Below are positions 49,424-53,584 of a stretch of DNA of 64,000 nucleotides, piece by piece. The first letter of the stretch is position 1; each line of letters opens with the position of its first letter. The DNA comes from Eledone cirrhosa. Its lineage: Eukaryota. The notes beneath the pieces are model-generated. The model did no database searches. It had not been told where the DNA came from and was given only the letters and a program-made list of their open reading frames with translations. Made by a program: the position numbers and the translations under genes. The stretch is taken from positions 1 to 64,000 of the forward strand of contig CAXHJY010001262.1 in NCBI GenBank assembly GCA_964016885.1, given 5' to 3'.

Positions 49424-49992
49424 GTTTTGCGAGGTTTTTTATATGAAATCGTGTGTCGAAACAGATATTGTTATATTTGGGGAGGGTCATATTTGCGTAA
49501 TATTGCCAGAATTAATAACAGAACACACTCACTGTTTGGTTGGTTTTCGCTTCTCGCTGTCTTTTATATATATCTATCTGCGATCTAACTTACTCGGTCC
49601 TCAATGTTGCCATTGACTGACCGGCGGTCAAAAATAATACAGATACAATATAGACAAACACATATATATATAGTTTTACATAAATCTTTCGTTGCACATC
49701 TGCAACATCGTCAGTGGTGTTATATTCATTGTTCCTCCTGTTGTGTTGTATGTCTACGCCATTTTTTTTTGTTTTGTTCAGTCTGTCTATATATTTATTT
49801 ATTTATTTGCTTGTTTGTTTATCTTATTTTATTTTGTCTTCTTTGCGCATGCGTTTGCGTGTGTGTATAGTGTTATGTGTGATGTGTGACTAGTGTGTAT
49901 AGTGTTGTGTCTGCTGGGTGACTAGTGTGTGTTTATGTGCTTGTGTATGTATTTATTTATCTTATTTTATTTAATTTAATTTACTTATTTAT

Positions 49993-51850
49993 TTATACTT
50001 CTCTTAGGTCAGTGTTGTTTGTTTGGGTGTTGTTGTTGTTCCACTCATTCTTTCTGTTTAGCTTTGGTCTTCTAATTTCTATTTCACTGGCCTCTCTGAT
50101 TTGCCTATCTGCTGGGTCATTCCTATGTTTAGATATTATTCTAATTTCTATGTTGTCTATGTTACCGTCATGTTGTTGTCTAGCATGTTCGTATAGTACT
50201 GACCCGTTTTTTCGTCCTTTTAGTTCCCCCCAGTGTTGGTCTATCCTTTCACCTATGCTACGAGCTGTCTCACCTATGTATGTTGTTGTCGTGTTTCTGC
50301 AAGTACCCTCTGTACATCTTATGCTATAGACTACGTTTCTAGTTTTACAGTTTATCCGGGGGTTCACCTTACATATGATACATTTCCTATTGGTACAGTG
50401 GGTTTTCTTAAAAGGGTAGGTTTTGCTGATCAGGGATTTTATGGTGGTTCCTGCTTTTCTACCACCTTTATTTTTAAGTGGGTCTTTCTCAGGGCCTTTC
50501 TACACTGGTTAGCTAATTTCTCTCCAGGGTGGCGTCCACAAACATGACACTCTGATATCTCTGGTTGTCGTACCATGATGTGGCCTTCCCTATCTTATGT
50601 CTAGCCCTATCTAAGCTATTCCATGATTTGCTCCTGTATAGTGGGCAAATTCCTTTCATGTCCAGTTCTATGAGGGTCTTATACTTTTCCATGGCTCCTT
50701 CGTATACTCTGACTCTGTCTCTTTGGTTGTAGCCAGAGAACTGCATGCGGTTGATGAAGTGTTGGATGTGTCCTTCCATTTCTGTTGGGTCGCACATGCT
50801 GGACACATTCTTCATCACCCGTACCAAATCTGCGATCAGAATATTAAACTTAGCACTACTGGACATTGCTGAGTTTTTGAGTATCAGGTATTTGGAGGCC
50901 ATGGGTTTAGCATAGTGTGAGTGGAGAATTTGGGCTCTCTCGTCTATAGTGTTAATCCAGAGTTCTGTGTCTAATACAGGTAGTCTATTGTTAGGGTGTT
51001 TGGAAGGGAAGTCTATAGTTACAGTTATACTCTGGTGTATGGAATTAGCTATCTGCTGGATGCTTTCCATCGTGCTACGTTCTAAATCAAACTTGTTAGT
51101 GCTCTCTAGTGGGGGTGTTCTTATAACTATATTGATATCGTCTACATAACGAGAGTACATGATGAGGTCTATGGAGCTTTCATTAAGGAGATCTTTAAGT
51201 CTCCTTTCCCACCATACCATGAAAAGGTTGGCAACATCGCCAGCTATGCTGACGCCGATGGCTGCTCCCTCATTTTGGGTGTAGATTTTCTCATTGAACT
51301 TAAATATGTGGCCCTTTAGGGTAGTTTTGATACTAGCCCCTATTGCATGTGCGACCATTTTTCTTACCTGATCAGTGTTTTGGGAGGTCCGTATAGCTTT
51401 GGTCCACCCAATCCACCTTCCTATGGGAGTCTTTTTAGCCATTGAGGTTATGGTGGGGGGTCTACCTCTTATAGGTCTACTAGGGCAGAAACATCTAAGG
51501 TCATGGCTGTCTAGGTCGTCAGTGTCGTAGGTAAGTCTAAGTAGGAGGCCCAGTTCGTCTGTGTCGACGTCGCAGAACTCCACCTCACTCTCAATGATCA
51601 TCTCCACACATCTTTTCACAGCAAAATCAATGTTAATGGATGGGTACAGTGACACCACATCCATGCTGCCTATTATGCAGTTGGATAGGCTCCTGTTTTT
51701 GTTGCACTCACTGATTCCGCTGAGGAGGTCCTCTGTACTTTCACATACATCTGGGGACATCTTGATTATGGGGCGTATAACCATTGAGAGGAAGTAGGAG
51801 ATCCTGTAGTTGCTAGCTATATTAGCTCCGCATACAGGTCTTGTTGGACC
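49993..51850 (-). CDS. PLE reverse transcriptase + C-terminal GIY-YIG endonuclease (5'-truncated, two 1-nt frameshifts at ~50527 and ~50452)
   Basis: RT motifs RPVCGA, GSMDVVSLYPSI, YTQNEGAAIG..IAGDVANLFM, YSRYVDDI, LPVLD and HYAKP. Cys linker CTNRKCIIC..C. Endonuclease NVVYSIRC....YIGETARSIGERIDQH, RQIREASEI and LNRKNEW. Confidence 0.88.
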
Positions 51851-51868
51851 ACCAACAAGACCTGTATG

Positions 51869-53048
51869 CATAGACCTCATCATGTACTCTCGTTATGTAG
51901 ACGATATCAATATAGTTATAAGAACACCCCCACTAGAGAGCACTAACAAGTTTGATTTAGAACGTAGCACGATGGAAAGCATCCAGCAGATAGCTAATTC
52001 CATACACCAGAGTATAACTGTAACTATAGACTTCCCTTCCAAACACCCTAACAATAGACTACCTGTATTAGACACAGAACTCTGGATTAACACTATAGAC
52101 GAGAGAGCCCAAATTCTCCACTCACACTATGCTAAACCCATGGCCTCCAAATACCTGATACTCAAAAACTCAGCAATGTCCAGTAGTGCTAAGTTAATAT
52201 TCTGATCGCAGATTTGGTACGAGTGATGAAGAATGTGTCCAGCATGTGCGACCCAACAGAAATGGAAGGACACATCCAACACTTCATCAACCGCATGCAG
52301 TTCTCTGGCTACAACCAAAGAGACAGAGTCAGAGTATACGAAGGAGCCATGGAAAAGTATAAGACCCTCATAGAACTGGACATGAAAGGAATTTGCCCAC
52401 TATACAGGAGCAAATCATGGAATAGCTTAGATAGGGCTAGACATAAGATAGGGAAGGCCACATCATGGTACGACAACCAGAGATATCAGAGTGTCATGTT
52501 TGTGGACGCCACCCCTGGAGAGAAATTAGCTAACCAGTGTAGAAAGGCCCTGAGAAAGACCCACTTAAAATAAAGGTGGTAGAAAAGCCAGGAACCACCA
52601 TAAAATCCCTGATCAGCAAACCTACCCTTTTAAGAAAACCCACTGTACCAATAGGAAATGTATCATATGTAAGGTGAACCCCCGGATAAACTGTAAAACT
52701 AGAAACGTAGTCTATAGCATAAGATGTACAGAGGGTACTTGCAGAAACACGACAACAACATACATAGGTGAGACAGCTCGTAGCATAGGTGAAAGGATAG
52801 ACCAACACTGGGGGGAACTAAAAGGACGAAAAAACGGGTCAGTACTATACGAACATGCTAGACAACAACATGACGGTAACATAGACAACATAGAAATTAG
52901 AATAATATCTAAACATAGGAATGACCCAGCAGATAGGCAAATCAGAGAGGCCAGTGAAATAGAAATTAGAAGACCAAAGCTAAACAGAAAGAATGAGTGG
53001 AACAACAACAACACCCAAACAAACAACACTGACCTAAGAGAAGTATAA
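51869..53048 (+). CDS. Inverted partial copy of the PLE-A RT/GIY-YIG ORF (three 1-nt frameshifts at ~52195, ~52567, ~52620)
   Basis: Peptides are identical to the minus-strand copy from IDLIMYSRYVDDI to ..NNTDLREV* (ORF track 51810-52205, 52214-52573, 52674-53048). Confidence 0.85.
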
Positions 53049-53326
53049 ATAAATAAGTAAATTAAATAAAATAAATAAAATAAGATAAATAAATACATAC
53101 ACAAGCACATAAACACACACTAGTCACCCAGCAGACACAACACTATACACACTAGTCACACATCACACATAACACTATACACACACGCAAACGCATGCGC
53201 AAAGAAGACAAAATAAAATAAGATAAACAAACAAGCAAATAAATAAATAAATATATAGACAGACTGAACAAAAAAAAAATGGCGTAGACATACAACACAA
53301 CAGGAGGAACAATGAATATAACACCA

Positions 53327-53360
53327 CTGACGATGTTGCAGATGTGCAACGAAAGATTTA
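53327..53360 (+). ncRNA. Minimal hammerhead ribozyme motif in PLE-A 3' UTR (mirror copy 49681-49714, - strand)
   Basis: CTGACGA-T-GTTGCA(gatg)TGCAAC-GAAA-GATT-TA: canonical core, 6-bp stem II and self-complementary AGAUUU stem III (with G-U pairs). Stem I is weak. Confidence 0.6.
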
Positions 53361-53584
53361 TGTAAATTATGTAAACTATATATATATGTGTTTGTCTATA
53401 TTGTATCTGTATTATTTTTGACCGCCGGTCAGTCAATGGCAACATTGAGGACCGAGTAAGTTAGATCGCAGATATATATATATAAAAGACAGCGAGAAGC
53501 GAAAACCAACCAAACAGTGAGTGTGTTCTGTTATTAATTCTGGCAATATTACGCAAATATGACCCTCCCCAAATATAACAATAT

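Follow-up and report, generated by a model that had tools for sequence, protein, structure and literature searches.

The stretch of DNA analyzed here (the window) comprises 64,000 nucleotides (nt) of Eledone cirrhosa (GenBank assembly GCA_964016885.1, contig CAXHJY010001262.1, positions 1 to 64,000), and positions 49424 to 53584 within it hold a Penelope-like element (PLE), 5'-truncated and bearing an endonuclease, that is inserted in a TA repeat together with an inverted copy in head-to-head arrangement. A short hairpin stands at the inversion point, and its loop, ACCA, is the sense sequence of the element on the plus strand. The contribution of this copy is a junction loop whose strand can be identified, and that identification weighs against the simplest form of snap-back, in which a first cDNA folds back and primes on itself. 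The account that we favor, although we hold it with somewhat less than even confidence, is that two cDNAs were primed from opposite strands of the target and that the tail-less one jumped 657 nt and joined its partner through a CC/GG overlap. The structure, the tail, and the idea of self-priming are already in print. An earlier note on this DNA had proposed self-priming, but the idea had been put forward before for palindromic inverted junctions: palindromes of 18 and 38 base pairs (bp) were described at the 5' ends of repeats in Adineta vaga, and those at inverted junctions were read as self-priming (PMC3846280, 2013).

The insertion is flanked on both sides by TA tracts (48540 to 49423 on the left, 53585 to 54249 on the right). 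The left arm (49424 to 51847, minus strand) is a 5'-truncated PLE copy holding the 3' untranslated region, the endonuclease, the thumb, and most of the reverse transcriptase (RT) core. The right arm (51869 to 53584, plus strand) is an inverted, tail-less copy of 51173 to 49465 whose terminus, ATAT (53581 to 53584), adjoins the (TA)n tract. In a BLAST alignment, 49465 to 51173 of the left arm matched 53584 to 51869 in reverse with 98.7% identity over 1723 columns, the differences being two substitutions and eight gaps (8, 4, 4, 1, 1, 1, 1, and 1 nt). Frame-shifting indels of 1 nt are present in each arm and differ between the arms. Between them lie 657 nt of single-copy sequence (51173 to 51829, with one base of the boundary ambiguous), in agreement with the jump of about 660 nt and the inverted 51173-to-49465 copy of the earlier note. 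Sequence, alignment, and folding likewise bear out the perfect 18-bp hairpin with a 4-nt loop that it had described at 51830 to 51869, GCATACAGGTCTTGTTGG-ACCA-CCAACAAGACCTGTATGC, which has a folding energy of -21.0 kcal/mol as DNA; the longest perfect stems in native arm windows are 4 to 6 bp (15 windows of 120 nt). The left end carries 41 nt (49424 to 49464, minus strand) that the right arm is without. The flanks are not mirrored, with 38 G in the 884 nt of the left tract and 1 G in the 665 nt of the right tract. The palindrome is real, its confirmation coming from within the window only.

The strand that supplied the loop can be read by comparison with native sequence. In one read run (X6), nine contigs diverge from the left arm at 51847 and run into TGGTCC, a continuation that, translated by hand, gives K-T-V-D-D-P-T-T-G-P with the spacing found in homologues. 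From 51846 to 51869 the plus strand reads G-P-P-T-R-P-V-C and the minus strand G-G-P-T-R-P-V-C; at the loop site, 28 of 35 homologues have G-P-P-x-R-P and none has G-G-P. The contigs continuing with TGGTCC, together with the G-P-P of the homologues, place the end of the left arm at 51847, within the G-P-P-T-R-P-V-C motif, and make the loop sense. The minus-strand copy does end inside RT, as had been noted, but at 51847 rather than at about 51851. Positions 51846 to 51869 are thus a 24-nt sense piece on the plus strand, loop included, which overlaps the left arm by GG (51846 to 51847) and shares a single C (51869) with the right arm. The minus strand, which is continuous with the right-arm cDNA, holds native sequence for four bases beyond the left arm and meets that arm through the 2-bp CC/GG overlap. 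The hairpin is not native to the element, in which the true continuation pairs over only 2 bp.

An intrastrand fold-back retains its own loop, whereas an interstrand switch inverts the loop (PMC8794818). A simple fold-back of the left-arm cDNA fails this test, because it would leave TGGT on the plus strand, where ACCA is observed. The micro-complementarity of a twin-priming-type junction, on the other hand, is present as GG/CC at 51846 to 51847. In the interpretation given by the earlier note, the PLE, the template switch, and the fold-back geometry (CC/GG with a 4-nt loop) all stand, and it is the self-priming of the left arm, as stated, that the loop contradicts.

The stretch absent from the right arm is bounded at one end by GGAGCT (51173 to 51178, plus strand) and at the other, at the foot of the hairpin, by the complementary AGCTCC (51824 to 51829, plus strand). 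Position 51173 is the sole arm site with at least five complementary matches to the hairpin foot, and at least six complementary closing bases are found in 2.4e-4 of 2.6 million arm position pairs, or 8e-4 when one-base offsets are allowed. The stem that the two would form is unstable, with a pairing probability of at most 0.002 as RNA or DNA (0.002 as RNA), and a pre-formed stem spanning the skipped stretch is thereby ruled out in both. If the pair played any part, it would have tethered the strands transiently or provided homology next to an extruded hairpin. The skip is in frame on the plus strand (657 nt, or 219 codons), for which there was one chance in three; at 51846 to 51900, G-P-P-T-R-P-V-C continues as I-D-L-I-M-Y-S-R-Y-V-D-D, with two RT motifs lost.

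The 6-bp match gives a more elaborate left-arm fold-back a real homology to work with, at the sole site of its kind. In that scheme a fold-back of the left-arm cDNA through CC/GG, with TGGT as its loop, would have primed 18 nt of synthesis, after which the strand would have shifted to 51172 by AGCTCC/GGAGCT pairing, either with itself or with a second cDNA. The loop would have been turned around later, through an interstrand template switch during replication or through an off-center opening in which the hairpin was nicked at its foot and passed to the other strand. Precedents exist: loop inversions at perfect hairpins are known, typically of 4 nt, with 69 cases in rRNA (PMC8794818); snap-back of R2 cDNA ends is documented (PMC11371274); and a 2-bp hairpin seed was found at an L1-linked inverted duplication (10.1101/2024.12.14.628481). 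We nonetheless judge this scheme unlikely. The extra loop event has left no direct sign, and the arms differ by only two substitutions, which leaves little time for a later flip. Absent the flip, TGGT would be expected, and four untemplated bases would match the sense sequence with a chance of 1/256. A second start site, moreover, accounts for the tail-less end (PMC11167929).

Raw reads provided a view of other copies of the family. Four of the 15 listed read runs were aligned to 49424 to 51990, runs X3 to X5 (0.07 of words) being left out, and 13,608 contigs of one run aligned to the PLE family stretch. Among the best 15 of 193 joints, 10 connect opposite strands, and each of these is present in both restriction site-associated DNA sequencing (RAD-seq) runs, which represent two samples of one study and support the joints mostly with one or two read starts. 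The two breakpoints of these ten inversion joints lie 190 to 1448 nt apart, none of the ten being symmetric, and the outer breakpoints of the window copy are 674 nt apart. Overlaps at the ten joints are 0, 2, 0, 0, 2, 3, 2, 0, 2, and 3 nt; an overlap of at least 2 nt is thus seen in 6 of 10, compared with 0.16 by chance (p 0.002). Native stems near the 20 breakpoints are only 3 to 6 bp. Both arms of the window copy hold G at 50291 and T at 50521, alleles that are rare in run X6, where the other letter makes up 98.6% and 99.4% of the depth, and this points to a shared source for the arms; in run X13 the same alleles are less rare, at about 8% and 13%. Independent reads agree with the right arm at two positions, 50452 (432 of 541 reads in one count, 451 of 578 in another) and 50819. 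The window letters at 51517 and 51718, each of which alters an amino acid, are absent or nearly so in all four runs; they may reflect private changes or a difference between species, or simply be errors.

These data bear on two further explanations. One is that the tail-less cDNA, complete to TGGTCC, folded back to give a near-perfect 2.4-kb palindrome and that the plus strand, made at integration or in later replication, crossed the loop and, with the 18-bp hairpin extruded, slipped between the AGCTCC repeats and lost 657 nt. Such a slip would account for the loop polarity and the shared rare alleles, and would give the 6-bp match a role as primer homology; a 4-nt loop is the smallest fold-back on GG, and PLE inverted junctions with palindromes have been reported (PMC3846280). 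Even so, we rate it as rather improbable, since none of the ten opposite-strand joints among the best 15 of 193 is symmetric, a slip between AGCTCC repeats would more simply delete the hairpin as well, and the tail would still require a second priming event. Long perfect palindromes are unstable.

The other is an artifact of sequencing or assembly, namely a long read running through a template and then its complement, or an amplification chimera bridging two genomic copies. A fold-back read would likewise give a sense-oriented loop, the consensus is noisy (the arm-specific frame-shifting indels, and the two positions at which reads favor the right arm), and the junction is absent from the best 15 of 193 joints. 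Against this stand the unmirrored flanks and tail, a duplication that ends at the element ends, arms that differ by two substitutions and share rare alleles, and a skip that falls on the sole 6-bp match. Inversion joints of the family also occur ten times in raw reads of two other samples, and a neighboring PLE has the same layout. We consider an artifact improbable enough that it would surprise us.

The two ends of the insertion speak to how it was primed. An inverted 5'-truncated copy beside the element is known for PLEs, with a tail of 30 to 40 bp often at one end only (PMC8557442), and in vitro the target is nicked and extended on both strands, the tail being bounded by two RT start sites (PMC11167929). 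The window copy shows the truncated inverted pseudo-long terminal repeat of endonuclease-bearing (EN+) PLEs in its inverted 5'-truncated copy, and its 41-nt tail fits their one-sided tail of 30 to 40 nt. An unrelated neighboring PLE in the same TA tract has a one-sided extension of 32 nt, with TATA at its short end. The earlier note had correctly observed that the inverted arm stops 41 nt short, at ATAT, but had taken this as a trace of annealing to the target; given the known tail asymmetry of PLEs and the same geometry in the neighboring element, it is not special to this copy. Position 49424 is joined to an (AT)n stretch in one read class, and 49465 did not emerge as a common end of the family among the best 15 of 193 read joints. 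In another genomic copy (joint 49470/50918) the short inverted arm is 47 letters long and reaches the tail end (49424 to 49470), so that, unlike in the window copy, the tail can lie on the short arm.

The reading that we favor, with two cDNAs, would run as follows. The endonuclease would nick (TA)n on both strands; synthesis would begin at the outer RNA site for one end, giving the tail, and at AUAU, 41 nt farther in, for the other. The tail-less cDNA would leave position 51173 for RNA at 51830, near the growing end of its partner, with AGCUCC/GGAGCU possibly serving as a transient tether for the jump, and would then copy 24 nt. Its last CC would pair with GG, whether on the partner cDNA or on its own strand; the second case amounts to a brief fold-back that is relayed to the partner through the 18 newly copied nt, and the product is identical. 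Each cDNA would then template the second strand of the other, and the hairpin would be an 18-nt overlap of two cDNAs and no proof of self-priming. Loop polarity, both-strand nicking (PMC11167929), the tail geometry of the neighboring PLE, the rare alleles common to both arms, the in vivo occurrence of such junctions in the family, and the 6-bp pair all argue for this reading, as do its economy in needing one integration event, its fit to the asymmetry and overlaps of the family joints, and the L1 precedent.

Several points weigh against it. The test of the 6-bp pair was devised post hoc, with the sequence already seen, and besides the instability of that stem only one base (G/C) would be true primer-template homology for a minus-strand jump. 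The listed joints are the best-supported ones near restriction sites and are no random sample. The window junction is not among the best 15 of 193 joints from four independent runs, a result that counts neither for nor against it. The order of the steps cannot be read from a single junction, and the rivals yield the same letters. Both cDNAs, finally, copy the 3' end here, which requires a second RNA or strand displacement.

The element itself was identified from its domains. On the minus strand the RT comes first, followed by a GIY-YIG-type domain, in a reading frame broken by 1-nt indels. The RT core and thumb (50527 to 51847, minus strand; SMDVVSLYP, GAAIG, YSRYVDD) match Pfam RVT_1 with an E-value of 1.3e-4, under the curated cut-off. 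In a protein search that returned 35 relatives among longer proteins, the closest was a predicted Octopus vulgaris protein with 71% identity, and a search of solved structures with the RT gave only two bacterial defense RTs with weak E-values. The linker, C-X4-C-X2-C (CTNRKCIIC), and the GIY-YIG-type endonuclease (49993 to 50499, minus strand; VVY...YIG, C..C..H..H) were recognized by eye, and the endonuclease region gave no Pfam match. Its layout, with a short spacer, resembles two Nematis rows listed in the supplement of PMC8557442. Neptune and Nematis are described as having a CX2-5CxxC linker before the endonuclease and CCHH within it, and the Hydra clade as having no CCHH, a CxCX5C linker, and DKT (PMC8557442). 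The linker and the CCHH thus fit Neptune or Nematis, as judged from sequence motifs. The Hydra clade does not fit, given the CCHH-like residues, the different linker, and DKS in homologues; KDHK is held in common with Hydra rows of the same supplement. A hammerhead-like half core (CTGACGA, a 6-bp stem, and GAAA) was found by pattern scan and folding at 49687 to 49714 on the minus strand and, in mirror, at 53327 to 53354 on the plus strand. The Rfam hammerhead models gave no match to it up to an E-value of 5, with stems I and III not established, and the Rfam scan returned only microsatellite-driven matches under gathering scores. The right arm alone has an 8-nt tandem duplication (53367 to 53374) directly after the half core.

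The neighboring PLE (54250 to 59354) contains a 779-amino-acid open frame (55582 to 57921; RVT_1 E-value 3.6e-7) and has inverted ends of about 780 nt. Its identity to the first PLE is 29% over 109 amino acids, and its inner junction, near 55026, is unreadable in a microsatellite. Elsewhere in the window, a 169-amino-acid frame at 25928 to 26437 appears by eye to be the end of a decayed protein of the long interspersed nuclear element type and has no Pfam match. Tandem units of about 42 nt at 28200 to 31000 show frequent 1-nt indels between copies, a further sign of a noisy consensus. A dispersed short repeat occurs in both orientations (13826 to 14017, 16865 to 17133, 20865 to 21409, 23111 to 23437, 24411 to 24615, 32521 to 32679, 38141 to 38316, and 48244 to 48342).

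Metagenome contigs were also searched. The exact junction had no match in them, in collections where the host is unlikely to be found. Of 80 related loci, the best 50 were compared with themselves, and 8 had inverted repeats of at least 30 nt; in none of the 6 of these that were inspected did the inner end carry a stem longer than 7 bp. These loci are distant families on short contigs and are given little weight. Three metagenome PLE contigs start with their own inverted copy (L005, 1 to 61 and 3126 to 3186; L015, 1 to 119 and 1436 to 1554; L050, 1 to 146 and 893 to 1040), and the inner ends of all three are without a hairpin.

Taken alone, the window copy is one more inverted PLE insertion, and it does not settle the joining mechanism. 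How PLE insertion is completed is stated as an open question (PMC8557442, PMC11167929). The copy does suggest a cheap test, in which the native element sequence is set beside a junction hairpin to see which strand gave the loop. Applied to many copies of a family, the test could separate self-priming from two-cDNA joining, and if the two-cDNA reading is true, loop orientation would become a genome-wide readout for the second-strand and joining step. We found no paper using loop orientation at PLE junctions, in a search that covered few subscription journals and did not include the exact words. As a tentative generalization, which we would put forward as doubtful, PLE inverted insertions may generally arise from a pair of target-primed cDNAs, each begun at its own start site, with hairpins inside the reading frame as joining scars whose loop shows the farthest cDNA and with short complementary RNA pairs steering RT jumps of hundreds of bases.

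Comparison with known systems places the window copy among several retroelements. With R2 snap-back (PMC11371274) and the small-hairpin duplications of L1 (10.1101/2024.12.14.628481) it would share a 3' end priming on its own strand, over 2 bp in one L1 case. In those cases, however, the folding strand is known. For the window copy, the left-arm cDNA is excluded by the loop, barring a later flip, and a fold-back is not strictly required. L1 twin priming (10.1101/2024.08.27.596794) would have in common with it two cDNAs from opposite nicks joined by micro-complementarity, an upstream jump by the internally primed one, and short duplications at breakpoints; that study counts 20 insertions of the type called "twin priming and 5' switching" and 1,703 in which the 5' end is inverted, the former having internal duplications with a median of 22 bp. 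In L1 each cDNA covers its own part of a single RNA, whereas both cDNAs of the window copy cover the 3' end, and the window copy has neither poly(A) nor, in its (TA)n tract, a resolvable target-site duplication. Poseidon of Anolis, studied in vitro (PMC11167929), shows two start sites bounding the tail, nicking and extension of both strands, and an AT-rich target, but it belongs to another clade and primes without homology, in contrast to the ATAT common to the tail-less end and the target here. The closest likeness is to canonical EN+ PLEs (PMC8557442, PMC3846280), with which the head-to-head copy, the one-sided extension of 30 to 40 nt, the (TA)n target, and a palindrome at the inversion point are all shared. 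The window copy differs from them in that its inverted arm is 1.7 kb long, its junction lies within the RT coding region, and its palindrome was made during insertion and is no native pseudo-long terminal repeat feature, so that the strand behind its loop can be told.

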